Assembly: GCF_030409605.1 (NCBI RefSeq) | Contig: NZ_JAUFQG010000004.1 | Coordinates: forward strand, 540,430-604,429 | Direction: 5' to 3' | Source: Simiduia curdlanivorans | GTDB lineage: Bacteria > Pseudomonadota > Gammaproteobacteria > Pseudomonadales > Cellvibrionaceae | Length of the DNA stretch: 64,000 nucleotides | In this document: positions 12,250-36,732 of the stretch, one piece after another | Layout of the letters: the number at the start of each line of letters is the position of its first letter | How positions within the stretch are numbered: position 1 is the stretch's first letter | Program-made: the position numbers and the translations under genes | The notes under the pieces: model-generated | What the model saw: the letters and a program-made list of their open reading frames with translations, nothing else | Databases searched by the model: none | Told to the model about the DNA's origin: nothing

Positions 12250-12296
12250 TGGCGATTGGGGTAGGGTAACAAACTATTTCTCTCAAGGCTTACTCA

Positions 12297-12782
12297 GTGA
12301 CAGATTCACCGCCTCGCATAGCCATTTTCGCCGATGTGCAAAACATCTACTACACCACCCGCCAAGCCTACCAACGCTCGCTAGACTACCGAAAGCTTTG
12401 GCACCTACTCGCGGGCCAAGGCGAGATAGTCATGGCCACCGCTTACGCCATTCACCGCGGCGACGAGAACCAGTTGAAATTCCAGCAAGCGCTGAAAAAC
12501 ATCGGCTTTACCGTGCGCCTCAAACCCTACATCCAACGCAGCGACGGTTCGACCAAAGGCGACTGGGACGTAGGTATTGCCATCGATGTCATGGAGCAGG
12601 CGCCGGTGGTAGATCGCGTGGTGCTACTTTCGGGCGACGGCGATTTCGATCTACTCTTGGAGAAGGTGAAAATGAAATTCCAGATTCAGGCCGATGTCTA
12701 CGGCGTGCCAGCGCTCACCGCAAATTCACTGATCACATCGGCCAGCCAGTTTTACCCGATTACCGAGGCTTTGTTGATGTAA
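12297..12782 (+). CDS. NYN-domain (LabA-like) protein
   Basis: 161 aa: IAIFADVQNIYY then VLLSGDGDFDLL, the classic NYN/PIN-like acidic residues. Confidence 0.75.
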   Translation: MTDSPPRIAIFADVQNIYYTTRQAYQRSLDYRKLWHLLAGQGEIVMATAYAIHRGDENQLKFQQALKNIGFTVRLKPYIQRSDGSTKGDWDVGIAIDVMEQAPVVDRVVLLSGDGDFDLLLEKVKMKFQIQADVYGVPALTANSLITSASQFYPITEALLM

Positions 12783-12788
12783 GAAGGA

Positions 12789-12945
12789 GCTGCAAGCTAC
12801 AGGCTGCAAGAGGTTAGGAAGATTACAGCTGACAGTTCACAGTTCACAGAAAGGGCAAAGGCAAAAATCACAGGCGCCAAGAATCAGCTACCTAGCTTTT
12901 AGCTGTCAACTGCCAACTGCCAACTGCCAACTGCCAACTGCTCAC
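12789..12945. repeat. intergenic heptamer tandem-repeat hairpin element: (GCTRCAR)x3/(ACAGYTN)x4 - spacer - (CAACTGC)x5
   Basis: gctgcaagctacaggctgcaag...gattACAGCTGACAGTTCACAGTTCACAG, then a spacer (gggcaaaggcaaaaatcacagg) similar to the spacer of element 11541..11630, then gtCAACTGCCAACTGCCAACTGCCAACTGCCAACTGCtcac. Confidence 0.6.
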
Positions 12946-13036
12946 TAATTCTCGCGACTATGGTGTTGGTTACGCTATCATAAGCGCCATTTTTAGGGTG
13001 CTACAACGCAGCATCAACCAGACAGGGAGCTTAGTC

Positions 13037-14488: not shown

Positions 14489-16062
14489 TGGAATATTGCC
14501 ACTTTCACCCGCTCTCATCGGCCACCTTTTATTGCGACCACTGCCTTACCAACCTGTGCGACCACTGCATAGACGACACTCAACAGCGCGGTGGCGAGCG
14601 CTGTATTAGCTGCGCAAAACCGCTCATTAGCTTGGGCGCAGCGCACAGCGCCGAGCCATTCTGGCGTAAACTAAAAGACGCTTTTCACTACCCACTCTAC
14701 GGTCAGTCGTTAACGTTAATCATTGGCGTCGCCGTGATGACCAGCGTGGTGGCCTATATTCCCTTTGCCATCGTCTTCTATCTCATGGCCGTGGGCGCTT
14801 TAATGCGCTATAGCTTTGCCTGCCTAGAAAATACCGCCAATGGCAAAATGACGGCGCCCGATATCACCGAGGCTTACGAAGGTGGCATACTGCTGATATT
14901 TCAATTAATCGGCATTGTCGTCATTATGACGGCAGCTGTTTTTGGCGTTAACGAATTTTTAGGCGAAGGCCTTGCCCGCCTACTCGCCGTATTTTGTCTA
15001 TTGAGTTTTCCCGCGATTATTATTTTATTCGCCTTGAACAGAAATATGTTCGACGCCATTAATCCTCTCAGTATCACTCAGCTGATACTGTCAGTAGGCC
15101 TCTCCTACGGCGTGCTATTGGGTTTAATCTTGGTAATGAGCGCATCCGTTAGCGTTATTCACGAACTCATCGGTGCAGAATTTTCCTTCATCAATGCCTT
15201 ACTACAAGGCATCGTTTCCAACTTCTATACCGTTGTGACCTTTCATATCATGGGCTATATGATCTTCCAATATCAGGCCGAGCTAGGCTTCGTTGCCCGA
15301 GAAGATCACGGTGGTATCGCCAAAAGCAAAACTGAGCAAGACTTGCACAATGCCAAAATAGACATAGCACTTAAACTAGGGCAATACGGCCGAGTGGTAG
15401 ATCTGTTCGGCGAAGCCAATCGGAAATTCCCCAATGACTACAATTACTATGTGCGCTGCTTCGACCTTCTCTGCGCTATCAAACAAACCGATCGCTTAGA
15501 AAAGTTTTTACCTTTCTACTTTGATTTTTTACCCAAGGCTCAACGCGGCGATCAAATTTACCCGAGCTTTAAACGCGCCCTCGGCCTCATACCCAACTAC
15601 CTACCCGCCACCGCCAAGCTGCGCCACCAGCTGGCGGAGCAATGCCAATTCAAAGGCGACCCCAAGTCAGCGCTGCGCCTGCTCAACGGCATTCACAAAC
15701 ACTTCCCCACCTACCCAAAACTAACGGCCGCCTACGAAGTGATGGAGCGCGCCTTGGGCGACCTACCCAACATGGAAAAGCAGCGCGCGCAATGTAAAAC
15801 ATTCATTGAAAACTTAAAACAAAAGGCCGCAGAAGCAGAAGCGGCAAAACAGGCGGCGCAAGCCATACTAAAACCCAAGAACAAGCCCATGCTCGACAAG
15901 TCGGCTCTGCGGCCGAATAAAGACAACACGCCACAGGAAGCCCAAACACAGCCGCTGCGCAAGAGCGAGCAACAAAAGCTACGGGCACAGCAATTAGCGG
16001 AGAGAAATGCTAAGGGAGAGGCAGAGGGCAAAGACTTGCCACCGATTGAGTTTAAGCCTTAG
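14488..16062 (+). CDS. membrane protein with N-terminal B-box-type zinc finger, polytopic middle and Lys/Gln-rich C-terminus
   Basis: The ATG overlaps the rhomboid stop (TAATG). CHFHP..YCDHCLTNLCDHC..CISC is a Cys/His zinc-binding pattern. Eight or more hydrophobic helices follow, and the C-terminal ~90 aa are low-complexity K/A/Q/E-rich. Confidence 0.65.
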   Translation: MEYCHFHPLSSATFYCDHCLTNLCDHCIDDTQQRGGERCISCAKPLISLGAAHSAEPFWRKLKDAFHYPLYGQSLTLIIGVAVMTSVVAYIPFAIVFYLMAVGALMRYSFACLENTANGKMTAPDITEAYEGGILLIFQLIGIVVIMTAAVFGVNEFLGEGLARLLAVFCLLSFPAIIILFALNRNMFDAINPLSITQLILSVGLSYGVLLGLILVMSASVSVIHELIGAEFSFINALLQGIVSNFYTVVTFHIMGYMIFQYQAELGFVAREDHGGIAKSKTEQDLHNAKIDIALKLGQYGRVVDLFGEANRKFPNDYNYYVRCFDLLCAIKQTDRLEKFLPFYFDFLPKAQRGDQIYPSFKRALGLIPNYLPATAKLRHQLAEQCQFKGDPKSALRLLNGIHKHFPTYPKLTAAYEVMERALGDLPNMEKQRAQCKTFIENLKQKAAEAEAAKQAAQAILKPKNKPMLDKSALRPNKDNTPQEAQTQPLRKSEQQKLRAQQLAERNAKGEAEGKDLPPIEFKP

Positions 16063-16177
16063 GGCCCTTTAGATATACCGTGAAGTAAGACGCTATTGAG
16101 TTTCATTCGAGCACTAAGATATTTAAATTAAGGATTATGCACGACTTCAGGAGATTAACCGTTACAGCTTTTAAAGC

Positions 16178-16378
16178 TTAACTGAGAACCCCATCATAAG
16201 ACCAAAATCGCTTCCAGCTGCTTGGCTTTGGATGCGCAAGAGCATATTCCCTTCGCTTTATGTGATCCAAACTTTCGAACCAGTCGGCAAATTCAAACCA
16301 GTAACTTTCCCCCGGATCTTGCCGCCACCACATCGAGCCTAAAGGCTTGTTCGGATATTTTTCCCAAGGAGGCATCAT
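16178..16378 (-). CDS. hypothetical small Trp-rich protein
   Basis: 66-aa ORF in the AT-rich islet (MMPPWEKYPNKPLGSMWWRQDPGESYWFEF...). Its reality is uncertain. Confidence 0.35.
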   Translation of the reverse strand: MMPPWEKYPNKPLGSMWWRQDPGESYWFEFADWFESLDHIKRREYALAHPKPSSWKRFWSYDGVLS

Positions 16379-16570
16379 TGCCTATACCATAGAAATAGAA
16401 ACAATTTTGGAGTTAATAAACAACCCTTAACGGTACATAGAATGCAACCCATGCCGGTTAAAGACCTATGACTTAGTGCCATTAGAAAACGGTAATTAAC
16501 AGTTAACACTTGTAGCGAGGCGGGATTAGTGCCGAGTTCAGCAGCGATAGGAGCGGCTTGACCACCCTTA

Positions 16571-16948
16571 TTAATTTCCATTCGCACACACCAACTTGAG
16601 GTCGTGATTAATGGACTTGTAAAATTGAGGGTAGCCACTATCGGTTTTGTATGACACTACAACCCCATTCTCTAGTAACCCGATATTGTAGGACGGATAA
16701 GTATACCAAAGCTTAGGTAGATACGACGCATAAGACGGACTCCAACCTTCATTATTACTCCTAATCCAATTTGTAATTTCTAGGTATCTCTCATCTGCGC
16801 CAAAAATTTGCTTACCGCAATATTCAAATTCCGAAGGTAACAACGCAGCATCGATACTTTGCGATCGAAATACATATAGCAGTAATCCAACCACTAGGAA
16901 AACCACAGTTAGAAATATAACTCCGATGATCTTTGGTGCACTTTTCAT
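16571..16948 (-). CDS. hypothetical membrane-anchored protein
   Basis: 125 aa with an N-terminal TM helix (IIGVIFLTVVFLVVGLLLYVF) and an aromatic-rich ectodomain, in a low-GC region. Confidence 0.5.
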   Translation of the reverse strand: MKSAPKIIGVIFLTVVFLVVGLLLYVFRSQSIDAALLPSEFEYCGKQIFGADERYLEITNWIRSNNEGWSPSYASYLPKLWYTYPSYNIGLLENGVVVSYKTDSGYPQFYKSINHDLKLVCANGN

Positions 16949-16994
16949 AGAATCTTAACGCCAATGTTATGCGGAATTATTTTTGGATAAAATT

Positions 16995-17786
16995 ATGATT
17001 AAATTAGTGCTAGTTTTAATTCTAGCTGTACAAATTTTAACGGTTCTTGTAGGAAAAGAAGAAAGTGACTCGCCCACAAGTTACGATAGTGAATTAAATG
17101 CAAAGCAACTGCGAGAAAAACTTGTTAAATCGTGCAGCAAAAAAAATGAAATTTATGCATTCTGTACTTGTTTTCGGGAAAATCTTGATTTAGTGACAGA
17201 TGATGACCTGACTAAATACCGAGATCGAAAAAGGGTTTTAGAGGCTGAGGCGATGAAAGCGAAGGTATCAGGTGATATAGTTAAGCTAGATGTAATTACC
17301 ACTGACATCAGTGAAGGATTGATTGATAACAAGATAAGTAAAAAATGCATGCCACCGCTTTTATTGGAGGGCGAGGAGTATGAGAAAAATTTTAATAAAG
17401 GAATCTATCACTACGCAAAAAAGGATTACAAAAAAGCAATAGAGTATTGGTTGCCATACGCTGAAGCTGGCAGCGGGCCCGCAATGGCAAACCTAGCTGC
17501 GCTCTACAATAGAGAAATAGATGGACAGATTGATCTACTAAATTTATACCATTGGAGTTTTAAGTCAGGTCTTAATGGAGATTCACAGGCGCAATTTAAT
17601 TTGGCTGTAATGTTTTTAAACGGCGAGACGGGAAGCAAGGATCTGATAAAGAGTTATGTATGGGCTGAGAAGGCGGCGCAAGGTGGTCACGACACAGCGC
17701 AAAAGCTTAAGGGTGACCTTGATCGTTATCTATCCAATGATCAGATCGTTGAGGCACAAAAGTACTCAGCAGAGATATTTCAATAG
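16995..17786 (+). CDS. Sel1-like repeat (SLR/TPR-like) protein with signal peptide
   Basis: ATG at aa 5 of ORF 16983. Sel1 repeat signatures: AEAGSGPAMANLAALYN, GDSQAQFNLAVMFLNGETG, AEKAAQGGHDTAQKL. Confidence 0.7.
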   Translation: MIKLVLVLILAVQILTVLVGKEESDSPTSYDSELNAKQLREKLVKSCSKKNEIYAFCTCFRENLDLVTDDDLTKYRDRKRVLEAEAMKAKVSGDIVKLDVITTDISEGLIDNKISKKCMPPLLLEGEEYEKNFNKGIYHYAKKDYKKAIEYWLPYAEAGSGPAMANLAALYNREIDGQIDLLNLYHWSFKSGLNGDSQAQFNLAVMFLNGETGSKDLIKSYVWAEKAAQGGHDTAQKLKGDLDRYLSNDQIVEAQKYSAEIFQ

Positions 17787-17917
17787 GGCCAAGGAAGTTG
17801 CATAACAAATCAAGGCAGCCGAACCAAAACGCTTACTTCGTTCGCGTTTCGGTCGGCTGCTTGAGGCGTTATATGCCGTGTGAAGCGAAGCGTAACGAGG
17901 TCACATTGACATTTTTG

Positions 17918-18325
17918 TTATGCATTTTCTTCCTCATCAAAGTACATATCCCAAGAAATACCTAACCCATATTTTACCAACTCTTTCATCATTGCCACGC
18001 TCAGTCTAGGCCCACCCTGGCCAGTTGAATCCCAACGGCAAAATATATCAGTTGAACAGCCAGAATCGCGAAGGGATGATAGCTCACCCTCTTTACCGTT
18101 TAGTAGAGAAAGCAAAAGCTCCAAATGTTTCACGTTATCGGTGGAATTCAAATCAACTTCTGTAGTTCTCGACCAAAAGTTCAACTCTCTTCTGGGTTTG
18201 TATTTTGAATTAGGGTCTCTTGGTACTGAATCAGTCGATTGGATGCCAATATACTTTTCGATTTCATCAGGGTGCATTTCATCTGAAAATATTCTTAATG
18301 TAGCGTATGTTTCAGTACAAGCCAT
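17918..18325 (-). CDS. DUF4279-like hypothetical protein
   Basis: 135 aa. The N-terminus TYATLRIFSDEMHPDEIEKYIGIQSTDS resembles the DUF4279 family N-terminal signature. Low GC. Confidence 0.5.
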   Translation of the reverse strand: MACTETYATLRIFSDEMHPDEIEKYIGIQSTDSVPRDPNSKYKPRRELNFWSRTTEVDLNSTDNVKHLELLLSLLNGKEGELSSLRDSGCSTDIFCRWDSTGQGGPRLSVAMMKELVKYGLGISWDMYFDEEENA

Positions 18326-25146: not shown

Positions 25147-25695
25147 TTATTTATCGGCGGCGTAGGGATCATCGGCAAAAAGATAGGCGCGCAGTACCGA
25201 TCTATCTTCTTGCTGCATCAACCATTCGCGAAAATTCTTTAGCTTCTGGTAGCGCTCGGTACCAAATTTCTTTTCATATAAATCGCTAAAGGTCTGCTTG
25301 GCGTGGTCGGCGCGAATTTGTTTTTGCCATTGCCGCGTCAGCACTTTGTTGAGCGAACCGGCAAGTTTATGCTCTTTCAACAACTCCCACTCGCCCTTAT
25401 CCAACCAGATGCCGCCCACTGCCGGGCTATAATCCAATTTGTGTTGAATATCAGCCGCCAATTTAATTTTTTGCATGATGGCACCAGACACGGGGCAAAG
25501 CATCGCCGATGCAGTTTCCGACATTTCCATCGGCTGAGCTTCGGAGAAGTCGTGATCCGGGTGCGCCGCCAACCAAGCCACATAGTCTTCGACGAAGACC
25601 CAATTACCCAAGCAATGATGACAGGTGTGGGCGCGAAACAACCCGTCGATAAAGCTCGGCCGTAACTCACCCTGCTTGCAACTTGTACACTTCAT
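25147..25695 (-). CDS. zinc-ribbon protein (CxxC..CxxC + CPxxG), last gene of PspA/flotillin/giant-ATPase operon
   Basis: 182 aa: MKCTSCKQG..CHHCLGNW and a second CPVSG element. It starts 23 bp downstream of the giant gene stop on the same strand. Confidence 0.6.
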   Translation of the reverse strand: MKCTSCKQGELRPSFIDGLFRAHTCHHCLGNWVFVEDYVAWLAAHPDHDFSEAQPMEMSETASAMLCPVSGAIMQKIKLAADIQHKLDYSPAVGGIWLDKGEWELLKEHKLAGSLNKVLTRQWQKQIRADHAKQTFSDLYEKKFGTERYQKLKNFREWLMQQEDRSVLRAYLFADDPYAADK

Positions 25696-25718: not shown

Positions 25719-28700
25719 TTATTCTTTATGTTCATCGTTCTTTTTCAGAGACCGCTTATTACCCGCCGCCAAGGCGCGCAGCTGATGTGATACATCCTGC
25801 ATCTTGTCGTGGGTTTTCAAATCTATTTCTAGTTTTTTGTCCATGCTGCGCACCAGCGGGAAAATACTGTTTTCGATAGTATCGGCCAAGGCCGTTAACA
25901 TGCGATCGATACCAGGAACCGGCTGATTAATCACCTCCACTTTTGGCGCCAACTTTTCTAAGGATTTTGCGATACCCAGAATTGCTAATACTAGAGGTTC
26001 GCGCGCCGACTTCTCTGTTCTAGGCTTGGCCTGAGCCGTTACCATGGCTTCGCGCAAGGATTGAACGCTGGCCACCATATCAACCAATTGCGCTACAATT
26101 TTGCCGCCGGCATCGGCATCGTCGCCACCCATGGCTTTATTGCGCATGAAATCTTTCTTGATCGCCTGCCAGCGCTCCGCCTGCAGCTCCGTCATGTTGC
26201 CGCGCAATTCGGCCAATTTTAATAAGTTGGCCTCGGCACCGGTGGTGAGCAACTGGGCCTCACCTAAATAGTGATCGGCTATCATCTGCATCAGCTCGGC
26301 ATCGTTCATCACGGCAGAAATTTTCTCCGTCATTTTATTCATATTGCGGTAGCTACCCTGCAACTTGAACGGTGGCTCGGTGCGGTATTTGTCATCTTGC
26401 GCGGCGGAGATAATGTATTGCTGGTTAATTTTTAATACCACATCGCGCACCACCATCATTTTCTTCAAAACGCCGGTGATCTCACCAATTTCAGAACTGC
26501 TATAGGCATGGCTTAAATCTGTTGTGGCAATACTCTCGCCTTGCGCCATTTTCACCAGCTTATAAACATCGGCCATTTCCCGTGTTGCCAGCGGCGCTAA
26601 TACCGGGTTTGAGGTGAGCGAGTTTTCGATATAACTCAGCGCAAATTGCTCGTCCATACCGCCGAGAATATCGCCCAAGTTATAGATATCGGCTCGGTTA
26701 GCGAGCATATCCGGAATTTTAAATGCCTCACCCGACTCAGTGTAGGGGTTACCCGCCATCACTACGCAAAACTTCTTACCGCGCATATCGTAGGTTTTAG
26801 TCTGCTTGCGCCATACGCCTTCGATGCGCCGTGTGCCGTCGCACAAGGAAATAAATTTCTGCAAAAACTCTGGGTCTGTGTGTTGAATATCATCGAGATA
26901 CAACATCACGTTATTACCCATCTCTAAACCCAGGTTTAGTTTCACCAATTCCTGTCGCGCCGTGGCATTGGGCGCTTGCTCTGGGTCGAGTGACAGCACG
27001 TTATGGCCGAGCGACGGGCAGTTGATTTTCATAAAAATCAAACCCAGCCGATTTGCCACATACTCCATTAAGGTGGTTTTACCGTAACCCGGCGGCGAAA
27101 TCATCATCAGCAAACCCATGAGATCGGTTCGCTTAGTTTCACCAACGGTACCCATTTGCTTGGCGAGGTTGTCGCCAATTAAAGGCAGATAGGATTCATT
27201 AATGAGCCGGTTTCGAACAAAGGAGCTCAGCGGCCGCGCTTTAAATTCATGTAGCTTTAAGCCCTTGCGCTCGCGCTCAACGATAGCCTGACGCACCTTG
27301 TGGTACTGATGATAACCGGCCACCACCACGCGCCGATGGTGCGCCATGCGCAACAGAAAACTGTCTATCTCTAGACTCAAACGGCCTTGATCGAGTAGCG
27401 GGTGATCACCCAACAGTCCCTCAACGATCAATTGTAAGTCGGCCTCGGTATCGCGCCGACGTACATTTTTAGCCGCCAGCATGGCTGCAGCCTCGGGAAT
27501 AAAATGGCGCGCCTTATCACTTTTCTGATGTTCGGTCAGTGCATCGAGCCAGACGCTAATGACGCGAAGCTTCTCACCGGGGCGTTGGTCTAAATTTTCT
27601 AACACCGACTGAAATCTTGCCCACACCACGTCGTCCATGGCACTTCGCAAGCCTGCCTCTAATGCGCGCGCATACTTGCTGGATATAAACGCAAATTGAT
27701 CTCGGGCCAATTCAGCCACCAAATACTGAGCCGCGCGCTCGGTATTGTGGCCACTGCTATCAACGCCCTGCGCCTCAACCCAAAGCGACATGGCAGCGTG
27801 AACCTCCTGCTCTAAAAGCGCTATCGCTTTACCGCTGGCGAACAAGGTATTCAGTAGGGCCGCCGATTGTGCCCGTTGTTGCCACTGCTTTACCTTTGAC
27901 TGGCTTAAGCGGGTATCGTCAGCCACATCGACAAAGCTTGCCCAAAAAACCTGCGCCAAGGCGCGGCACTGCGGGTCGAAGCGCAAGAGATCTGCGGCAT
28001 CTAGCGCCGGTAAGAGCGCCTGCAGAATTTTGGTTGCATCGCTATCGTGTATGCCTTTTTCGTAACCCTCTTTGTAGCGCGGCGCGGCAAAAGCTTTGAC
28101 CAAGTTAGCCAGCTTCGCCTCATCTAACAAAGCCTCTTGCAGAATGCCTAAACTCAGCGCCTCGCTCCCCGCACGCGCCGCCTCGAGCAAACTGTAGGCG
28201 AGGTATTCACCTCGGTACACCTGCTCCGTCTCGGACTCAATATTCAACTGCCAGTAATCACTGAGTGCGTTCAGCTCGGCATCGTCTATTGGCTCGTAGT
28301 AATCCGTGCCCAAGAGATGAATATTGAGTTTATTATTTCGCGGAATAATGGTCAGGTCTAACTCCTGGGTATTGACCGAAAAACGGTGCCGCGGGCCCAA
28401 TTTTATAACACTGCCACCCGCTTCAAAGATGTCGCTTTTATCGCGCAGCGAACGCAGCGCCTGTTCTTTTACCGCCTTAAAGCGCGCATCCACATCATCG
28501 GCTTTGACGGCGCTATTGAGCTGGCGCAAGCGCTCGGAAAATTCCCGCACTTTTTGCACCAAGGCATCGGAGGCAAAGTAGGTGTTTAGCTCGTCTTTAT
28601 CGGTGAACTTTAGGGTTCGCTTTTCGATGCTCGATAACACTCGACTGGCCGCGTCTACAACCGACTGTGCCTTTTGCTGCTGCTCATCCAATAACTTCTG

Positions 28701-30995
28701 CTTATGGCCCTCAAAGGCCTCATAAACCTCTTCCCGCTTGCCAATAATCTCAGTCAAAAATTGATCGTACTCGCTAAACTGGCTTTCGAATTCTTCTAAC
28801 TGCACCAGTAGTCGCGATAACTGCTCATCGCACTTTTCCGGTGTATCGGCCAAACTCAGGGCGTTGTTAATACTTTGGCTAAACAGTTTAAATTGGGCAC
28901 CAAACTGCGCCGTTGCCTCGGTCGAGCCTAGGCTTTTATATTTGTTGCGCGCGATAGCGCGGCTTTGATTGAGCAAGCCGTAAACTTCAGAAATCGCATC
29001 GACGATACGGGTCGTCACGGTGGCGTCATCACCTTGCAAGGTACTCATGAGTTCGGTTAACAAATCGAGCTCAGCCGCTGCTTGATCAATATTGTCAATG
29101 CAGGGTGTGACCTCCGCCCTCACCTCGGCTTGATCAACCGCGGCCTGAACCCCTTGAATTTTTTCGTGATAGGGTTGCAGGGCTTTTTCATCGGCGAGAA
29201 AGCCTAAGGTACGCTCACTCAAATTCGCTTCTGCTGACTCTAGCTCCTTGGTCAACGTTTCAATAATCTTGAGGTCGATATAACGATAACTGGAGATACT
29301 AACTAAATGCCCGCGCTGGCGGCGCAACTTAGTCAGCATCGAAACAAATTGATCAGCACTCTGCCATTCGTCTGGCCGCACCGCGCGCAACAGTTCCACC
29401 TGGGTTTGTTTTGCGTCGGTTAACGCTTTGCTCGATTGCAGCTGAATAGATTGAACCTTTTCAAACTCATCAATCACTAGCTCGGCGGTCGCGGAAACAT
29501 CTTTCAACACCTGCGCCAAGTCACCCAGCGCTTCGTCGGACACCCAATAGTGTTCGTCGAATATTTTTTTCGCCGCTAGATTTAGCTCTTCATAAATTTT
29601 TGCGGACACCTCGGGATTCTCGATCAACCGAGTAAGACTTAATAGATTTGAAACACCGCGCACCAGCTCTGAGTTACCTATTTTACCGAAAGCGGTTTTG
29701 CTAGGCGGTAGTTTACTGGCGAATTCAGCGCTAAAGAAGGGCGTGGTCCAAATTTGCATGGGATGCACCCGCGTCGGTTCATCGCCGGCGCTGAATATCA
29801 CCAAGGTGCCATCATCGGCCAAGGCGTAACCGTGGCAAGTTATCGGATTTTTTAGGCTCTTCTCGATCATATTGTAGGAGAGCAATACCAAAACACCGTT
29901 GACCGGCTCATAAAAAACATAGAGCACATCTTCGCCGTTGGGCGAGCGCACGACGCGTTTAATTTTTAGGCCAATGGTGCGCTCTTCGAAAGTTTTATGC
30001 TCGCCAGTTTGTAAGTAGTAACCACCGGGGAAAATAATCCCGTGATCCTCTGGCAGCTGCACGCAAGACATGCCAATGGCGTCTATACGAAGCACTTTTT
30101 GCGTCAGGGTGTTATAAACAAAGTGGCGCCAAAGCTCTTCGCGGTAAGGCTTAACTTTCAACAATATCAAGGCACCTACACGGGCATAGGAAATATCGGC
30201 ATCGTCTAAGGATTGGGTTTTATCTTCAACTGGCTCGCGGTAGATACCTAAGCCATCTTCGGTATTATTTTCCACCTTGATGGTAAGATCGCCGCCCACG
30301 GTTTCCACAAACACGGTGTCTTCAATATTGACATGTGGGTGTTTGCCGTGCACGCTGTGTTCGCGCGTAGTTTCTATCCAGGTAAAATCAAAAGCCGGCG
30401 GCAGAGAGATATCGCGCTCACCACGGTTATCAATATATTTTACGGTTTTACCATCGGCCGATATGGACCAGCGAAATACGCGCAGGTCATCTAATCGCTC
30501 GCCAATCTGAAAACCCGCCAGTAATTTTCCGTCTTTAACACTTAGCTCGATTAACTTAGTGTGCTTGTAGTAGCGATATAGCTCGCTGAAATCGTTGACG
30601 AAGCCTCTATCGGCTAAAAAAGTTCCCTCGGCGGAAACCTGCTCGAGATCTGTATCGGAATCATTGGAACCCAATTTGAATAGAGAAAAAACGTCTTCGA
30701 CTGCGGTCTCTTTCTTTAAGCCAATGAAAACGTTGTAGCCGAATAAAAGATAATCCCCAACTTGGACGATATCTCTTGGCACACAGTTATTGACCGTTCG
30801 AATGCGAGTGCGGGCGCTGACGGCCATGTCAGAGCTGCCGAACTCCTGCAAGCGGCGCTCATTGATAGTGTTAGCAATCTGCTTTAGCGATTGCCCTTGT
30901 GCAACCAGACGCTTGCGGATGATCTCGTAGGCACCGCCCTGCGCAACCGCATCGTCAACTACACCGTCTTGCGCCGGCTTCGCAGCTTCGCTCAT
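25719..30995 (-). CDS. 1758-aa multidomain protein with C-terminal AAA_5 (MoxR/McrB/dynein-type) ATPase module; N-terminal ~1150 aa uncharacterised
   Basis: Uninterrupted 5.3-kb ORF. Motifs: Walker A ISPPGYGKTTL, Walker B VMLYLDDIQH, sensor-1 CVVMAGNPY, Arg finger/sensor-2 MLANRADIYN. The central region is predicted coiled coil (QLQSSKALTDAKQTQVELL...). Often auto-annotated 'DNA repair ATPase' without support. Confidence 0.85.
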   Translation of the reverse strand: MSEAAKPAQDGVVDDAVAQGGAYEIIRKRLVAQGQSLKQIANTINERRLQEFGSSDMAVSARTRIRTVNNCVPRDIVQVGDYLLFGYNVFIGLKKETAVEDVFSLFKLGSNDSDTDLEQVSAEGTFLADRGFVNDFSELYRYYKHTKLIELSVKDGKLLAGFQIGERLDDLRVFRWSISADGKTVKYIDNRGERDISLPPAFDFTWIETTREHSVHGKHPHVNIEDTVFVETVGGDLTIKVENNTEDGLGIYREPVEDKTQSLDDADISYARVGALILLKVKPYREELWRHFVYNTLTQKVLRIDAIGMSCVQLPEDHGIIFPGGYYLQTGEHKTFEERTIGLKIKRVVRSPNGEDVLYVFYEPVNGVLVLLSYNMIEKSLKNPITCHGYALADDGTLVIFSAGDEPTRVHPMQIWTTPFFSAEFASKLPPSKTAFGKIGNSELVRGVSNLLSLTRLIENPEVSAKIYEELNLAAKKIFDEHYWVSDEALGDLAQVLKDVSATAELVIDEFEKVQSIQLQSSKALTDAKQTQVELLRAVRPDEWQSADQFVSMLTKLRRQRGHLVSISSYRYIDLKIIETLTKELESAEANLSERTLGFLADEKALQPYHEKIQGVQAAVDQAEVRAEVTPCIDNIDQAAAELDLLTELMSTLQGDDATVTTRIVDAISEVYGLLNQSRAIARNKYKSLGSTEATAQFGAQFKLFSQSINNALSLADTPEKCDEQLSRLLVQLEEFESQFSEYDQFLTEIIGKREEVYEAFEGHKQKLLDEQQQKAQSVVDAASRVLSSIEKRTLKFTDKDELNTYFASDALVQKVREFSERLRQLNSAVKADDVDARFKAVKEQALRSLRDKSDIFEAGGSVIKLGPRHRFSVNTQELDLTIIPRNNKLNIHLLGTDYYEPIDDAELNALSDYWQLNIESETEQVYRGEYLAYSLLEAARAGSEALSLGILQEALLDEAKLANLVKAFAAPRYKEGYEKGIHDSDATKILQALLPALDAADLLRFDPQCRALAQVFWASFVDVADDTRLSQSKVKQWQQRAQSAALLNTLFASGKAIALLEQEVHAAMSLWVEAQGVDSSGHNTERAAQYLVAELARDQFAFISSKYARALEAGLRSAMDDVVWARFQSVLENLDQRPGEKLRVISVWLDALTEHQKSDKARHFIPEAAAMLAAKNVRRRDTEADLQLIVEGLLGDHPLLDQGRLSLEIDSFLLRMAHHRRVVVAGYHQYHKVRQAIVERERKGLKLHEFKARPLSSFVRNRLINESYLPLIGDNLAKQMGTVGETKRTDLMGLLMMISPPGYGKTTLMEYVANRLGLIFMKINCPSLGHNVLSLDPEQAPNATARQELVKLNLGLEMGNNVMLYLDDIQHTDPEFLQKFISLCDGTRRIEGVWRKQTKTYDMRGKKFCVVMAGNPYTESGEAFKIPDMLANRADIYNLGDILGGMDEQFALSYIENSLTSNPVLAPLATREMADVYKLVKMAQGESIATTDLSHAYSSSEIGEITGVLKKMMVVRDVVLKINQQYIISAAQDDKYRTEPPFKLQGSYRNMNKMTEKISAVMNDAELMQMIADHYLGEAQLLTTGAEANLLKLAELRGNMTELQAERWQAIKKDFMRNKAMGGDDADAGGKIVAQLVDMVASVQSLREAMVTAQAKPRTEKSAREPLVLAILGIAKSLEKLAPKVEVINQPVPGIDRMLTALADTIENSIFPLVRSMDKKLEIDLKTHDKMQDVSHQLRALAAGNKRSLKKNDEHKE

Positions 30996-31052: not shown

Positions 31053-32948
31053 TTACGCGCTTGGCGTGTCTTTGTTGACGTCCGCAACCGGCGTATCTAC
31101 CAAGCGATGCAATATCGCCTGTAGGGTTCCGCTCTTTTCAGCCAAGCCATCAATGGCCTTGCCGATGGACAGAGACTTAGCAAAGTTATTGAAGAAATGA
31201 TCTTCACCGCCGACGATATCGATCTTGGCTTTCTGCAGCGCAGTCGCCAAGACTTCGGCATTTTCTTTAGCGATTTCCTTACCTGCATCGATAGACGCCA
31301 AGGCCTCTTTCAATGCGGTTTCCAGCCCCATGCGGAACTCTTCGTGGGCACGCGCCTGTGCGCTCATGCTATTCATGGCGCCGAACTTCTCAACCAGGCC
31401 ATCGGCCTCGGCTTTAAATTGCTCGCGCGTCACTTCGGCATTGGCCATACCGATTTGGCGTGCAGCGCGCGCCTCAGAATCGCCTTTGGCGCCGATAACT
31501 TCGGCTTGCGCTTTACCCGTACCCAAGAGCGCATCGGCTTCCGCATCGCCTTTGGCGCGAATAACATTGGCTTCAGCAAGCCCTGGCGCTGCGCGCTCGG
31601 CCTGCACGCCTTCCGCCATTTTCTTCTTCGCCTCAGCTTCTTTAGTAGTCGCTTCCAATTGCGCTTGCGCTAACAAGGTAATCTCTACCGACTTATGCTT
31701 GGCGGCCTGCTCTTCAGCTTCAGCGGCTTTCACCTGCTTCACTTTGTCTTCTTCAGCCAGCGCTTCCGCTGCCAACACTTTAGTTTGCTTGGCGCGATCG
31801 GCCTCGGACACTTCGCGCACTTCTTTAATGCGCTCTTCTTCGATGGCCACAGTCTTATCGACAGCGACGCGCTCGCGAATCACATTGGCAATTTCTTTCT
31901 TCTCAACTTCTACCGCTTTTTCAGCTTCTATGCGTTGAATTTCAACTTCGCGCTCGCGGGCAACAATTTCCAGATCTCGCGCTCGGGTTACTTTTTCTTC
32001 TTCGATAGCCACAGCGCGTAAACGATTCTGCGTGGCCACCTCGATTTCGCGCTGTTGATTCTCGGTTTTAACCGCAAGATCTTGATCGACCTGAATGGTA
32101 GTAGACTGAGCCCTGAGGCGCTCTTCTTCCTGCACCTTTTTTGTTTCCGCCTCTTCGCGCGCCCGAATGGTGGCGATTTCGCGCTCTTGCTTGGCTTCGG
32201 CATCAGACTGCTGACGCTCAAGCGCGAGCATGGCCTCAACGGTTTCCACGTTCTTCTTTTTGATTGCCAATTCTTCATCGCGCTCTAGCACATTGGTGCG
32301 CACATTCTGCACCGCGGTGAGCTCGGTAATTTTCTTGATGCCCTCGGCATCCATGATGTTGCTAGGGTCGAGGGATGATTTCGGCGTTTGCTCTAGGTAG
32401 TCGATGGCCACATCTTCGAGCACATAGCCATTTAAATCCTCGCCAATGACCGCGACAATTTTTTCGCGGAACTGCATTCTGTTTTCAAACAGATTAACGA
32501 ACTCAATTTGCTTACCCACGGTTTTCAAAGCTTCGGAAAACTTGGCATTAAACAGTAAGTTAACCGCTTCGCGATCTGAAGCACGACTAGCGCCGATGGA
32601 CTTGGCCACCTTCAACACATCTTCCGCGGTTTCGTTAACCCGAAGATAGAAGGCAACGGTAATATCGGCGCGCATATTGTCGGCACAAATTAAGCCGTCT
32701 TTGCCACGCCTATCCACTTCCAAGGTAATCAATGAAATTTTCATCAATTCCTTTTTGTGAATAATCGGGTAGACCAGTGCACCGGTAAAATGCACTTTCG
32801 GCTTCGGACTCATATCGTTGACGATAAGTGCCACACCTTGCTCCACCTTTACATAAAAGGCTTTAAAGAGCGCCGCTAGCCCCATGAGAATTACAAAGAC
32901 TATCCCTACACCCGAAAGAATCGGCATGAGCACTGAAAGATCAGCCAT
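31053..32948 (-). CDS. flotillin/SPFH (band 7) family protein, YqiK-like, with long EA-rich coiled-coil
   Basis: 631 aa: N-terminal TM helix, SPFH domain (QGVALIVNDMSP... DNMRADITVAFYLRV), ~250 aa of E/A/K/R heptad-like repeats, and a C-terminal flotillin tail. Confidence 0.85.
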   Translation of the reverse strand: MADLSVLMPILSGVGIVFVILMGLAALFKAFYVKVEQGVALIVNDMSPKPKVHFTGALVYPIIHKKELMKISLITLEVDRRGKDGLICADNMRADITVAFYLRVNETAEDVLKVAKSIGASRASDREAVNLLFNAKFSEALKTVGKQIEFVNLFENRMQFREKIVAVIGEDLNGYVLEDVAIDYLEQTPKSSLDPSNIMDAEGIKKITELTAVQNVRTNVLERDEELAIKKKNVETVEAMLALERQQSDAEAKQEREIATIRAREEAETKKVQEEERLRAQSTTIQVDQDLAVKTENQQREIEVATQNRLRAVAIEEEKVTRARDLEIVAREREVEIQRIEAEKAVEVEKKEIANVIRERVAVDKTVAIEEERIKEVREVSEADRAKQTKVLAAEALAEEDKVKQVKAAEAEEQAAKHKSVEITLLAQAQLEATTKEAEAKKKMAEGVQAERAAPGLAEANVIRAKGDAEADALLGTGKAQAEVIGAKGDSEARAARQIGMANAEVTREQFKAEADGLVEKFGAMNSMSAQARAHEEFRMGLETALKEALASIDAGKEIAKENAEVLATALQKAKIDIVGGEDHFFNNFAKSLSIGKAIDGLAEKSGTLQAILHRLVDTPVADVNKDTPSA

Positions 32949-32990: not shown

Positions 32991-33683
32991 TCAATTACCG
33001 GAAAATTCAGCTTCCGAAATGACTTTATAAATATTTGTCGCAACCTCGTGCTCTAATAATACCACGCGATCACCCTTCACAAATTCAACACCCGGCTCGC
33101 TGCGCACCTTAAGCAGCAAACCCGCGCCACCGTCCGACAAAATCGCCTCGCCCATTTGGCTATTAACCACTGAGCTACGCACAACCGCCGTTTGCCCGAT
33201 AATAAATTGCACCGTTTGCTGGCGTGCATTTTTAAATAAGGGGCGGAGCGGCTTTATCACCTGACTGGTGATCATCACCGCAGCATACAGGGAAGCGAAA
33301 AGCACCGGCAAACCGAGCAAATAGCGCAAAAAACCATCTGGCACCCAACCAAACAGGAAGTGCACAAGGTAATAGCAGACCAGCCAGCCGAATAGTGCGA
33401 TCAGCGACACGATAATGGTGACAGGTACACCCTGAAGACCGAACTTCAACATCAAGGCGGCCAGTACATCGGGGGTTGAGTGACTGCTATCGGCATTGAT
33501 ATCTAGGTCGCCGTCCATATCCGGCACATCGAAATCGAGCATATCAATATCGACGAAACCCAAGACCGCAACCAGCCAATACAGCAGGCATAAAATTAGA
33601 AAGAAGCTAAAAATAGCGGTCGGGAAAGACGCTAAATTTTGATAAAAGGGGTCCATTTTATCGGAAAGTAGTATTGCGAACAT
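32991..33683 (-). CDS. YqiJ-like inner-membrane protein with NfeD-type OB-fold C-terminus
   Basis: 230 aa with 3-4 TM helices, an acidic loop (DIDMLDFDVPDMDGDLD) and a C-terminal beta-rich segment (GQTAVVRSSVV...LLLKVRSEPGVEFVKGDRVVLLE), as in NfeD partners of flotillins. Confidence 0.65.
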   Translation of the reverse strand: MFAILLSDKMDPFYQNLASFPTAIFSFFLILCLLYWLVAVLGFVDIDMLDFDVPDMDGDLDINADSSHSTPDVLAALMLKFGLQGVPVTIIVSLIALFGWLVCYYLVHFLFGWVPDGFLRYLLGLPVLFASLYAAVMITSQVIKPLRPLFKNARQQTVQFIIGQTAVVRSSVVNSQMGEAILSDGGAGLLLKVRSEPGVEFVKGDRVVLLEHEVATNIYKVISEAEFSGN

Positions 33684-33756: not shown

Positions 33757-34458
33757 CTATGCCTTCTTATTTTTTAGCCGCTCGAGCACATCGGCTGCAC
33801 TGGCGCCACTGGAGGCAATACCTGCCGCCTCTAATTTGGCCTGCAATGATACATCAGAATCTTCCTGTGCCAACTCCGAAGCGGCGGCCATTTGTGCCGA
33901 CTTCAGCTCTTGGCGCTCTTTAATGCGCTCGAGCGAGTCCATGGCGGTGCGCATTTTGGAGTTTGAGCCGCTGTGGCGCTCGGCCACTGCCGCCTGCGCA
34001 CGCTGGACATTATCCGTGGCTTTTACCGTATCCACCTGTTGCTTCAAGCGCTTAAGGTTTTGCTCAGTCTGCTTAATCGCCGCGCGTAGCTTGTCGGCAT
34101 TGGCGGCATAGGCCTGCACTGACTCTTGCTCCTGCTTTAGCTGGTTTTCAAAATCGGCAATTTTACCAGCCACTTCCAGCGCTAAAGCCTCATCCGACTT
34201 GTCTAGCGCCTTAACCGCATAAGCTTCGTGCTCTTCAACCTTTTTCTGCAAGCCGGCCACTTTCTGCTCGGCCAACTTTTGACGGGCAATAATCTCTGCC
34301 AAACTATCCTTTGAAAGCTTCAAGCCCTCAGAGGCATCGCGCACCTCCTGATCGAGAATTCGCAACGCTTGACTGTCGACAATCGCCTCGCCCGCTTCAT
34401 TTACGCCACCGCGCAACGCGGTCATCATCTTCGCCCAAATATTCATATTTTTCTCCAA
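33757..34458 (-). CDS. PspA/IM30-family protein (YjfJ-like; bacterial ESCRT-III superfamily)
   Basis: 233 aa, all-helical coiled coil. The N-terminus MNIWAKMMTALRGGVNEAGEAIVDSQALRILDQEVRDA is collinear with E. coli YjfJ/PspA family starts. The start may be Met5. Confidence 0.85.
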   Translation of the reverse strand: MEKNMNIWAKMMTALRGGVNEAGEAIVDSQALRILDQEVRDASEGLKLSKDSLAEIIARQKLAEQKVAGLQKKVEEHEAYAVKALDKSDEALALEVAGKIADFENQLKQEQESVQAYAANADKLRAAIKQTEQNLKRLKQQVDTVKATDNVQRAQAAVAERHSGSNSKMRTAMDSLERIKERQELKSAQMAAASELAQEDSDVSLQAKLEAAGIASSGASAADVLERLKNKKA

Positions 34459-34468
34459 TTCGCTAAAA

Positions 34469-35092
34469 TTAATTAAGCAAATGCTCAGCGTAAGCTTCTG
34501 TTGCCTGAATCACATTGCTCGCCAACACTTCAATTTCAAAGATAATATTCTGCAGCGCCGAGGCCGAACTGAGCGCACCAAACATGTGGTAGTAATCGCC
34601 CTCGGCGCCCAAATTATCTAAACTTATGGTCGATAGCGGAAAGTACTTGTGGGTGCGCAAAACCATTTCATTAAACGCCGCCGTATCTTTAACTTCGCTC
34701 ACCGACCACAACAGGGATTCGACGATGATCTGCTCGCCCACAACCGTTAAGAAAACCGGCAAATCGCCATACTCTTTCATAACAATATGCAACGCCGGTT
34801 CGACGCCGTCGATCAACTCGACACTGGCTCGACGCTGCTCGCTGAATAAATCACTCTCTTGCAAAGCTGCGTAGAGGGTGGCCGTTGTCCAAGCGTGTAA
34901 TTCCTGCATAAACACTTCTCCTTTCGTCATTTCTACTTCGCCCGGCAGCCGCAGCAACTTTTCATATTGCAAAAGTAACTTGCTGTGCTTGGGGAGAATC
35001 CAAACTTCCTTTTTAACCAGCCCCTGCTCGCGCAGCCGCTGGCGATACTCTCGTTGATAATGTGCAGATGATTTAGGCTTCATAAGGGTCAC
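34469..35092 (-). CDS. DUF2170 (YjfI-like) protein
   Basis: 207 aa encoded 10 bp upstream of the PspA-like gene. The listed start is GTG; an ATG at aa 4 (~35083) is the more likely start. Confidence 0.65.
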   Translation of the reverse strand: MTLMKPKSSAHYQREYRQRLREQGLVKKEVWILPKHSKLLLQYEKLLRLPGEVEMTKGEVFMQELHAWTTATLYAALQESDLFSEQRRASVELIDGVEPALHIVMKEYGDLPVFLTVVGEQIIVESLLWSVSEVKDTAAFNEMVLRTHKYFPLSTISLDNLGAEGDYYHMFGALSSASALQNIIFEIEVLASNVIQATEAYAEHLLN

Positions 35093-35099
35093 AATAATT

Positions 35100-35158
35100 A
35101 ATTACATGTAAGAAGGCAAGAAAATTACATGTAATATTTAGACAAATTACATGTAAGC
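35100..35158. promoter_or_regulatory. three copies of the perfect palindrome ATTACATGTAAT in the promoter/leader of the YjfI-PspA-flotillin-ATPase operon
   Basis: aattaATTACATGTAAgaaggcaagaaaATTACATGTAATatttagacaaATTACATGTAAgcgc lies 8-70 bp upstream of the operon start. Centre-to-centre spacings are 24 and 22 bp. Confidence 0.5.
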
Positions 35159-35331
35159 GCTAGCTGATACCGGGGAAACCTCGCACAGAAGTATGCAAGC
35201 TATTGAAAATAAAGAGATTTATTTGAGACCCTTATTGATTATGGCAAGGCTCTGCAAGACACTAATACCCGCTTTACGCTTCGCCAATAAGGAAATTTCG
35301 CCCTCCCTAGGGTTGTGGAAGGCTCGGTTAG

Positions 35332-36732
35332 CTAGAATTTCACCCGCATAGCCTGCGCCGTTAAACAATATTTACCCTGCTGCAAAAAGTGACAATAAGA
35401 GGCGTACTGCTCATCAGTTAACGCTTCGCCATTGGCGTCGGCATAGAGCAGCGCCACCACCCGCCCACACACCTCTATCGGAGCGATGAAGCAGGGCTGC
35501 AGACCCATTAGCTCCTTGATTAACACCGGAAATAAATGCTCGCTTTTATTCACCCTTTCCAATGAAAACCACTGCGGCGCTTTAAACAACAACGCCTCTG
35601 AAAATAACTGCACCGAGGCTTCGTTAAAATGTAACCGCTCGCGCCAAACCACGGCATCCGGCCCCGCCGCATAACGGGTCACCAGTTTACTTTTCAACAC
35701 CAGAACCACTGCCACCCTGGCTAAACCGGCGCCGTGGTGCAAACCGCGCACGATCAATTGGTAGACATGATCGGCGTCGGCACCCAATTGCGCCGCCGAT
35801 GATAACTCGCGCAAAACCGTCAACTGAATTTTTTCATCGGCTTTTACTGGCAGGCGAGCAAGCGCCTGATCCTGTGAACCGGGAATAAAATCCACCAAAC
35901 CGGAGGCGCCAAAAACGGACGCTAACTCACCCGCTGAATCGGCAATACGGATAGCGTCGGCCGTGGCTTGCGCTAGGCTAACTTTTCTCACGTTCGCCAC
36001 TTGCTTGAGCACCTGCTGAGCCTCTTTACTGTGCCAACCAAAGCGACTGACCTGACTGATAGCCTCGCCCATTCGAATCGCGTTGATGGATGCCGATGGC
36101 GCGCTGCTCGAGCTTAAGGCCTGCTCCAGTAGACTACTCAAGTGCCAGCGGTGCACCAATTCCCGGGTTAAGGAGCGAAATTGCAGGCCCAATACGGCCT
36201 CGCAGGCATCGTGCTCATTCACGCCCTCAGTCAGCTGATCGTCTAGCTGATCAGCCTGTATCTCGCCCTTAGACCAGACGGCCAGCTCGCCCACATGAAA
36301 TAGCAGTGCGGCAACAAACACTTGCTCAGCCACATCCTGATCCACCGTTGGGGCTAAAAACTTTGCCTGTAAGGCAGCGTGAAAGGCGCGCGCCATGGAT
36401 TGCAGCAAGCGCTCGCGCGGCTGAGCCCCCAGAAGTTGATCTACCAATAAGAGCGAAATGCATATGCCTTTCACACCCTCGAAACCCACTTGAATGATGG
36501 CGCGGGTAACGGTGTTGATGGCACCGCCGCCAGGGTTGTAATGAATGCTATTAGCCACACGCAACAGTTGAGAGGTGAGATTCGAGTCTTTTAATACTGC
36601 ATCAGACATTTCGTTAACGCGGGTATCGGCATTAGTGGTGAGTTCATTTAACTGTTCGATTACCCGCCCTAACACCGGCAGGTCGGCCGCGTCTAACTTT
36701 TGCACCCATGCTTGCAAACCGATAACGGCCAT
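35332..36732 (-). CDS. HDOD-domain signalling protein with C-terminal GAF-like region
   Basis: 466 aa. N-terminal HDOD features (LPVLGRVIEQLNELT, DLTSQLLRVANSIHYNPG). Confidence 0.7.
   Translation of the reverse strand: MAVIGLQAWVQKLDAADLPVLGRVIEQLNELTTNADTRVNEMSDAVLKDSNLTSQLLRVANSIHYNPGGGAINTVTRAIIQVGFEGVKGICISLLLVDQLLGAQPRERLLQSMARAFHAALQAKFLAPTVDQDVAEQVFVAALLFHVGELAVWSKGEIQADQLDDQLTEGVNEHDACEAVLGLQFRSLTRELVHRWHLSSLLEQALSSSSAPSASINAIRMGEAISQVSRFGWHSKEAQQVLKQVANVRKVSLAQATADAIRIADSAGELASVFGASGLVDFIPGSQDQALARLPVKADEKIQLTVLRELSSAAQLGADADHVYQLIVRGLHHGAGLARVAVVLVLKSKLVTRYAAGPDAVVWRERLHFNEASVQLFSEALLFKAPQWFSLERVNKSEHLFPVLIKELMGLQPCFIAPIEVCGRVVALLYADANGEALTDEQYASYCHFLQQGKYCLTAQAMRVKF

Follow-up and report, generated by a model that had tools for sequence, protein, structure and literature searches.

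A BacE-type giant ATPase of Simiduia curdlanivorans, its conserved SPFH and YqiJ-like partners, and a possible role in membrane-scaffold remodelling

A giant ATPase gene in a six-gene operon

A 64,000-nucleotide (nt) stretch of the Simiduia curdlanivorans genome (the window) encodes, at 25719..30995 on the minus strand, a giant ATPase of 1758 amino acids (aa) that combines DUF3686, DUF7902 and AAA+ regions in a single uninterrupted open reading frame (ORF) with an ATG start. The ORF was originally proposed from the nucleotide sequence alone, and the gene is real: its length and >6,800 clusters of homologues at 90% identity argue against a chance ORF, the best 120 homologues align over their full length throughout with 63-68% identity, and the product is 100% identical to an S. 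curdlanivorans protein (P0001) that carries the NCBI name 'DNA repair ATPase'. The gene lies in an operon of six genes, all on the minus strand and separated by gaps of 10-73 nt, that encode BacA-like, PspA/IM30, YqiJ-like, SPFH-like, giant ATPase and Zn-ribbon proteins. No convincing internal terminator was found within the operon, and scans for sigma-70 promoters and terminators stayed at background.

Judged by homology and gene order, the giant ATPase is the S. curdlanivorans orthologue of Pseudomonas aeruginosa BacE (PA3728 / PA14_16190, the latter named BacE in PMC10948618), a member of an experimentally uncharacterised family. Orthology to PA3728 was assessed via a Pseudomonas paraeruginosa locus (L040) that served as a stand-in for PAO1, where the orthologue has 55-62% identity over all three segments and synteny is identical. 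PF12458 (DUF3686) and PF25472 (DUF7902) are present in all 239 homologues among the matches listed, queries aside. A phmmer search of 1.84 billion representatives with the AAA segment recovered 406 clusters (50% identity) at E<=1e-30, and family members occur in at least five phyla. The family is therefore abundant and, by its conserved residues, catalytically intact, and the original prediction that single-AAA proteins of such build are rare in bacteria does not hold. The unusual character that it ascribed to N-terminal accessory domains was likewise overstated, as such domains are the norm for AAA+ proteins. At E<=1e-3, the same search returned 970 proteins in total, and the 150 listed were full-length family members or fragments; by this measure, the AAA module of the BacE family is isolated in sequence space.

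The BacE family and its operon have been described computationally by Ravi et al. 2024, who report a wider distribution for shorter operons limited to the band-7/flotillin protein, YqiJ/YuaF and, in some cases, the ATPase; their supplement contains nothing further on the ATPase (PMC11237479). DUF3686 was not mentioned in the literature searched, and no biochemical or structural study of a BacE-family ATPase was found there. Both the family and its associations are thus already on record. What the present analysis adds is the identity of the partner that is invariant in all five phyla sampled (the SPFH/YqiJ pair), the placement of its SPFH member in a subfamily that Pfam appears not to see, the invariance of the catalytic residues, Walker B DD included, and the sequence isolation of the AAA module.

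Conserved partnership with SPFH and YqiJ-like proteins

Gene order was surveyed with one genome per species; 577 relatives were recovered, and 80 of their loci were examined. Enough upstream DNA was available in 63 of the 80, which are called informative here; the other 17 were truncated at contig ends. On one strand, 63/63 informative gammaproteobacterial loci have the YqiJ-like, SPFH-like and ATPase genes in this order, and the SPFH and YqiJ genes were missing from no informative locus. The dyad of DUF2170 (BacA-like) and PspA genes was present in 44/63 and missing from 19/63. In more distant lineages, the YqiJ/SPFH/ATPase triad occurs without PspA in Streptomyces scabiei, a Myxococcota metagenome-assembled genome, an environmental lineage and Deinococcus grandis, and together with a 'chaperone Tir' and PspA pair in Hymenobacter (Bacteroidota). 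The conserved partner of the ATPase is the SPFH/YqiJ pair rather than PspA, and the PspA and BacA pair is an add-on. A connection to PspA and flotillin, anticipated in the original prediction, is thus borne out by gene context, with the emphasis moved from PspA to the SPFH/YqiJ pair. Taken jointly, the BacE identity and the SPFH/YqiJ partnership are well supported, and we hold them with high confidence.

The SPFH/flotillin-like partner (631 aa; 31053..32948, minus strand) lies directly upstream of the ATPase gene across a 57-nt gap and is predicted to comprise an N-terminal transmembrane (TM) helix, an SPFH-like domain and a 243-residue helix free of Pro and Gly. The Simiduia protein has no Pfam (Band_7 or Flot) match, and PDB phmmer and profile searches were empty. 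A profile of its family aligned to a canonical Streptomyces flotillin (hhalign probability 89.8%, E=1.8e-6), and Band_7 was matched by 1/16 family members (E=1.4e-7). Because of this profile alignment and the one Pfam match, we assign the 631-aa protein as a divergent SPFH protein. Identity among the Simiduia, Deinococcus, Streptomyces, Myxococcota and Hymenobacter partners is 41-59%, and they appear to form a distinct, very conserved subfamily that adjoins the giant ATPase in every locus examined. The S. scabiei locus (L081) also encodes a canonical flotillin (Band_7 and Flot) and a small membrane protein at 16266-18323, ~3 kb downstream of the ATPase, and thus carries both divergent and canonical SPFH systems.

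The other invariant partner is a YqiJ/DUF1449-like membrane protein (230 aa; 32991..33683, minus strand), recognised by a weak Pfam YqiJ_N match. Homologues occupy the corresponding place in every informative locus, and the one in Hymenobacter carries the annotation DUF1449.

The AAA+ module

The AAA+ alpha/beta core occupies residues 1290-1445 (26661..27128; this and all following parts of the ATPase are on the minus strand), as delimited by motifs and by an AlphaFold2 (AF2) model with a predicted local distance difference test (pLDDT) score of 65-85. All four motifs quoted in the original prediction are present within the interval given there (residues ~1180-1450): Walker A PPGYGKTT at residues 1301-1308 (nt 27072-27095), Walker B LYLDD at 1365-1369 (nt 26889-26903), MAGNPY with sensor-1 N1416 at 1413-1418 (nt 26742-26759), and NRAD with the candidate arginine finger R1434 at 1433-1436 (nt 26688-26699). 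An alignment of 313 full-length homologues, drawn from Gammaproteobacteria, Actinomycetota, Myxococcota and other groups, shows 100% conservation for each of PPGYGKT, D1368-D1369, N1416 and R1434, and the AAA region is the most highly conserved of the protein. Non-conservation of the motifs had been proposed as a sign of a pseudo-ATPase; because the catalytic residues are invariant in all 313 homologues, including the Walker B DD, the giant ATPase is not a pseudo-ATPase and is predicted to be an AAA+ protein with its catalytic site intact. These data agree with the single AAA+ module towards the C terminus that was originally described, and the module looks functional. The nucleotide-binding fold is AAA+, not ABC.

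The clade of this module is probably AAA_5/MoxR-like, an assignment that is plausible and not decisive. Pfam AAA, AAA_22 and AAA_5 give weak, above-threshold matches at residues 1294-1419. Among them, AAA_5 (26.1-28.4 bits versus a cut-off of 22, profile positions 2-125 of 139) is the sole Pfam AAA model that spans the whole alpha/beta core and is matched by 16/16 diverse family members, whereas PF00004 scores equally and covers just 40-43 residues around Walker A. A beta-hairpin is predicted at residues 1390-1403 (nt 26787-26828), between helix 3 and strand 4, that is, before sensor 1; its strands (1390-1395 and 1398-1403) are modelled at moderate confidence (pLDDT ~65), and the sequence of the hairpin region, RRIEGVW..KTYDMRG, is conserved among family members. 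Residues 1326-1343 form a conserved loop without a predicted hairpin, and a helix-2 insert is not visible in the AF2 model. The original assignment to the MoxR/McrB/midasin/dynein AAA_5 clade is accordingly favoured by the whole-core match and left short of decisive.

Membership of the classical AAA clade (Vps4, p97, FtsH, katanin) was considered and rejected. The giant ATPase is without the second region of homology (SRH), NRAD stands where classical AAA proteins have an RPGR-type motif, and no aromatic residue was found between strand 2 and helix 2 (NCPSLGHNVLSLDPEQAPNA) in the family alignment, leaving the module without an aromatic pore loop 1. When PDB sequences were searched with the complete ATPase and with a family profile for its AAA region, classical AAA proteins matched around Walker A only, the matches stopping after strand 2.

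Downstream of the core, residues 1446-1620 (26136..26660) are probably the lid with an extension; this region is highly conserved (0.59-0.70) and holds the invariant motif FKLQGSYRNMNKM, near which model confidence is low. R1550 is a candidate sensor-2 residue, and its distance from R1434 (~113 residues) is compatible with an insert, the lid being modelled at low confidence. The protein ends in a variable helical tail (residues 1621-1758, 25722..26135) with conservation of 0.03-0.39 and helices at low pLDDT. The helical C-terminal ~250 residues of the original prediction are thus seen in the model, at low confidence.

N-terminal and middle regions

The N-terminal region, described in the original prediction as unassignable, contains two Pfam families, both of unknown function. 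DUF3686 (PF12458) covers residues 37-483 (29547..30887) almost end to end (profile positions 2-448 of 448, E=3.5e-206), and DUF7902 (PF25472) lies at residues 604-687 (nt 28935-29186, E=3e-26). In the AlphaFold model, residues 58-417 contain ~29 strands (mean pLDDT 80), in agreement with the expectation that the first ~480 residues are beta-rich, and are modelled as a beta-propeller-like repeat domain, a fold that had been suggested as something to look for. A long N-terminal helix (residues 21-52) and the C-terminal helices (435-519) of the DUF3686 region make up a helical bundle in the same model.

The middle region, residues 484-860 including DUF7902 (28416..29546), is helix-rich and shows moderate-to-good conservation. 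Coiled coil had been predicted for residues ~480-1000; a crude heptad score, Pro/Gly spacing and composition support a helix-rich region with one long Pro/Gly-free stretch of 96 aa (residues 764-859), while Pro/Gly breaks recur every 15-50 residues elsewhere in it and the helical part gives way at ~861-915 to a beta-containing element. This conserved, non-helical element (residues 861-915, 28251..28415), delimited by composition and by near-invariant columns in a 55-sequence alignment, has the motif GGxVIKLGPRHxFSVNTQELDLTIIPR...HLTGTDY. The structure models cover residues on either side of 520-1000. Immediately before the ATPase core, residues 1000-1250 (27246..27998) form a predicted helical domain (AF2 pLDDT ~90 over model residues 10-180) with the lowest conservation in the protein, the tail excepted. 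When segments 480-1000, 1000-1290 and 1450-1758 were searched separately against Pfam at E<=10, DUF7902 was the only match.

Other operon genes and flanking DNA

Upstream of the YqiJ-like gene lie a PspA/IM30 (ESCRT-III-like) protein of the YjfJ/BacB type (33757..34458, minus strand; Pfam PspA_IM30 E=8e-46) and a BacA/YjfI-like DUF2170 (CesT/Tir-like) protein (34469..35092, minus strand). The latter exceeds the NCBIfam BacA equivalog cut-off (309 bits versus 300) and matches Pfam DUF2170 at residues 67-205. The sixth gene encodes a Zn-ribbon (TFIIB-type) protein (182 aa; 25147..25695, minus strand) 23 nt downstream of the ATPase, with a Pfam Zn_ribbon_TFIIB match (E=4.5e-9). This position varies: a Zn-ribbon gene is near the ATPase in just 16/80 related loci, and Pseudomonas has a PLD-like HKD protein (BacF) in its place. 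In the P. paraeruginosa locus, a PLDc_2 protein (12240-12947) downstream of the ATPase is followed by a gene without a Pfam match and then by recJ.

Two observations concern the surrounding DNA. Directly upstream of the operon, an HDOD-domain protein is encoded at 35332-36732 (minus strand), with a weak, below-threshold GAF match (E=0.026); the gene is conserved beside the operon in 0/80 related loci. Further away, positions 16001-18000 of the window have a GC content of 0.41 versus ~0.51 elsewhere and may be acquired DNA; the ORFs of this stretch encode a Sel1-repeat protein (16983-17786), a DUF4279 protein (17918-18325) and a protein without a Pfam match (16571-16948).

A candidate operator and the N-terminal extension of BacA

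Three TTACATGTAA palindromes (35102..35156, no strand) are spaced by 22-23 nt just upstream of the BacA-like gene, where 0.04 exact copies would be expected by chance. The degenerate form T[TC]ACATGT[AG]A is present in 2-4 copies, mostly ~21-25 nt apart, in 41/43 dyad-bearing loci, including Pseudomonas, and in two or more copies in 0/18 loci without the DUF2170-PspA dyad; in most loci (L001-L078) the palindromes lie at about -16 to -70 from the DUF2170 gene. They are likely to represent the operator of bac-type operons and are put forward here as a candidate for that element. A search for a sigma-54 promoter (TGGCAC-N5-TTGCW, <=3 mismatches) found no minus-strand site in 35093-35331, and its total matches equalled chance.

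The BacA-like protein itself begins with a conserved, basic extension of ~65 aa (residues 1-66, 34895-35092, minus strand; KSSAHYQREYRQRLREQGLVKKEVWILPE...). In BacA N termini translated from 14 loci, this extension (consensus KSSAHYQRxxRxRLREQGLVKKEVWI) is present in 12/12 operator-bearing loci, and the two dyad loci without the operator (L071 and L073) are also without the extension. The BacA crystal structure 8Q8O (146 residues) aligns to residues 64-205 only and leaves the extension, the putative DNA-binding part, outside. BacA has been reported to control the operon negatively in P. aeruginosa, in a paper that mentions neither an operator nor a DNA-binding domain (PMC10948618). The operator and the extension fit this negative control, and BacA is predicted to be a DNA-binding repressor of the operon.

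Proposed function of the BacE family

Published work places the orthologous genes in several physiological settings. In P. aeruginosa PA14, bacA to bacF are co-transcribed, by reverse transcription PCR; in a bacA mutant, BacE rises 8.9-fold along with BacB-D and BacF; and BacE is thereby co-regulated with genes on which biofilm formation, rhamnolipid secretion and virulence depend (PMC10948618). PA3728-PA3732 were up-regulated in all phage-infected P. aeruginosa samples (PMC12041424), and PA3728 is among the genes recurrently mutated in cystic-fibrosis isolates (PMC8190622).

The best explanation of the locus as a whole, which we rate at about an even chance, is that BacE is an oligomeric AAA+ remodeller of an SPFH scaffold and, where present, of PspA. 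BacE would be a cytoplasmic, single-module AAA+ ATPase serving the divergent SPFH scaffold and the YqiJ-like membrane protein. It would oligomerise through the AAA+ module, an inter-subunit active site being implied by the invariant, trans-acting Arg1434, and its N-terminal propeller, helical bundle and long helical arm would dock it onto the coiled-coil assembly that the SPFH protein forms in the cytoplasm. ATP binding and hydrolysis would then assemble, remodel or disassemble the SPFH scaffold. Where the PspA and BacA pair is present, the same machine would also load or recycle an ESCRT-III-like PspA polymer under membrane stress, and in this role would be a functional analogue of Vps4 with no homology to it. 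The lack of an aromatic residue between strand 2 and helix 2, together with the invariant Walker B DD, fits a MoxR-like remodeller or switch better than a processive threading unfoldase. Remodelling of the SPFH scaffold, taken as the specific mechanism, falls slightly short of an even chance in our estimation.

Several points weigh against this explanation. The literature yielded no report of a physical interaction, ATPase activity or bacE phenotype. Adjacency cannot tell whether the target is the SPFH protein, the YqiJ-like protein, PspA or a client in an SPFH microdomain. With DD in Walker B, hydrolysis could be very slow, and the protein could then be a nucleotide-dependent switch or a structural protein and no motor. 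Confidence in the model of the AAA region is moderate, and the clade assignment is not decisive.

The presence of PspA in the operon also suits a different assignment of roles, in which BacE is a dedicated PspA-disassembly ATPase, analogous to Vps4, and the SPFH protein is a membrane anchor only. A PspA/IM30 protein and its CesT-like partner are encoded in the same operon here, in the 44 dyad-bearing gammaproteobacterial loci and in Hymenobacter; the operon, PspA included, is induced under phage stress (PMC12041424); and, according to a review, bacteria appear to have no Vps4-like ATPase and no regulator of that kind for PspA (PMC7619361). We nonetheless consider this assignment unlikely, because 19/63 gammaproteobacterial loci do not have the dyad, nor do those of Streptomyces, Myxococcota, Deinococcus and the environmental lineage, whereas SPFH and YqiJ are never missing, and because the ATPase has neither the classical-AAA SRH nor the aromatic pore loop. 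Structural comparison by Foldseek against PDB gave MIT-like matches for the N-terminal bundle that did not stand out from those to dozens of unrelated four-helix bundles. If the AAA_5 match is instead taken at face value, BacE might be a MoxR-type chaperone or nucleotide-gated tether, a slow AAA+ switch whose arm and propeller recruit or mature a client complex (for example, secretion or respiratory) in SPFH microdomains that are not themselves remodelled. The best whole-core Pfam match, the invariant Walker B DD, the missing aromatic pore loop and the pleiotropy of bac mutants in biofilm formation, rhamnolipid secretion and virulence (PMC10948618) all suit such a role. Even so, the clade assignment on which it builds is not decisive, and the locus survey found no conserved neighbour other than SPFH and YqiJ that could be a client. 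MoxR ATPases are typically accompanied by a VWA/MIDAS partner, and none was found among the operon genes scanned with Pfam. A chaperone or tether is, in our judgement, improbable.

The two remaining explanations bear on how the gene should be named and classified. The name 'DNA repair ATPase', which the original prediction suspected of having been propagated without evidence, mirrors the description line of PF12458, and neither domains nor context support it. A SMC/Rad50-like repair ATPase acting on DNA would draw on those database names (NCBI and Pfam) and on the downstream genes in Pseudomonas, which encode RecJ and a member of the PLD family, a family that includes nucleases. Yet the PLD gene is lineage-specific and replaced in the window by the Zn-ribbon gene, in each of the phyla examined the conserved neighbours encode membrane proteins, and Pfam and NCBIfam scans found no SMC_N, AAA_23, Rad50 head, zinc hook, nuclease or DNA-binding domain. 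With its only P-loop at residue 1301, in an AAA+ and not an ABC fold, the anatomy of the protein already contradicts an ATPase of the SMC/Rad50/SbcC type, and we give DNA repair almost no credence. An anti-phage or abortive-infection system with membrane-protein effectors is very improbable as well, although the operon is phage-induced in P. aeruginosa (PMC12041424) and a literature listing connects PspA with regulation of cyclic-oligonucleotide-based antiphage signalling (CBASS). At E<=0.01, PADLOC models matched none of the ATPase, SPFH, YqiJ, BacA-like and Zn-ribbon proteins and gave only coiled-coil noise on PspA. The giant ATPase was absent from viral contigs and present in 13 of 72,556 plasmid records, 10 of these 13 typed as non-mobilizable. 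Synteny is stable across genera, sequence identity declines gradually across taxa, and local GC content is even at 0.50-0.52.

Overall, the observations of the original prediction are largely correct, and its interpretation is partly supported. Two processes are without a candidate enzyme, namely the assembly and disassembly of SPFH/flotillin cages and the recycling of PspA/Vipp1 polymers in the absence of Vps4, and the BacE family, relevant to both SPFH and ESCRT-III biology, opens the two to direct tests in a tractable organism. More speculatively, and with considerable doubt, BacE could be the first ATP-driven machine dedicated to the SPFH scaffold, present in at least five phyla, its hexamers sitting on the cytoplasmic cage cap to open, close or recycle the cage and, in lineages that add PspA, also driving turnover of the ESCRT-III polymer, as a convergent 'missing Vps4' from an isolated MoxR-like lineage. 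The widespread annotation as a DNA repair ATPase should be retired.

Comparison with known systems

The closest counterpart is the P. aeruginosa bacABCDEF operon, whose BacE resembles the Simiduia ATPase in Pfam architecture and length class and whose gene order (BacA-like, PspA, YqiJ-like, SPFH-like, ATPase) is the same. The two operons differ in the sixth gene, a PLD-like HKD protein in P. aeruginosa versus a Zn-ribbon protein in Simiduia, and in the sigma-54-like promoter proposed for P. aeruginosa (PMC10948618), with none detected upstream in Simiduia. The building blocks PspA, SPFH, small membrane protein and CesT-like YjfI are shared with Bacillus subtilis PspA-YdjGHI (SamGHI) and Escherichia coli YqiJK / YjfIJ. 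Going by literature descriptions, a giant ATPase is not reported in these systems, and, unlike theirs, the SPFH protein of the Simiduia operon falls in a divergent subfamily missed by Pfam Band_7.

Vps4/CdvC acting on ESCRT-III (Snf7/CdvB) offers a parallel in gene neighbourhood, with an AAA+ ATPase gene beside an ESCRT-III-superfamily gene (PspA here), in the combination of an N-terminal helical bundle with a single C-terminal ATPase module, and in a plausible role in recycling a membrane polymer. Homology is limited to the AAA+ fold, with PF00004 covering ~40 residues, and the giant ATPase differs in having no SRH or aromatic pore loop, in being four times larger, in its predicted propeller domain and in the dispensability of PspA. 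FtsH in HflK/C cages likewise pairs an SPFH scaffold with an AAA+ ATPase, and the SPFH partner of the giant ATPase shares the build of an N-terminal TM helix, an SPFH domain and a long coiled coil. FtsH, however, is a membrane-anchored classical AAA protease, whereas the giant ATPase has no protease domain (Pfam) and no evident TM segment by sequence reading and represents a separate, isolated AAA family.

Within AAA+ proteins, the MoxR/AAA_5 group (RavA, CbbQ and NorQ, and the modules of dynein and midasin) shares with the giant ATPase the whole-core Pfam match and the predicted pre-sensor-1 hairpin, and the pattern 'DD/DE-I-x-x-x-x-P...G...NP-x(5)-G-x(3)-I/L-P-x-x-L-x-x-R' of the giant ATPase resembles the MoxR consensus. 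Unlike this group, the giant ATPase has no helix-2 insert visible in the model, no VWA partner among the operon genes scanned and a Walker B DD instead of DE, and it carries ~1250 residues of unrelated N-terminal domains.

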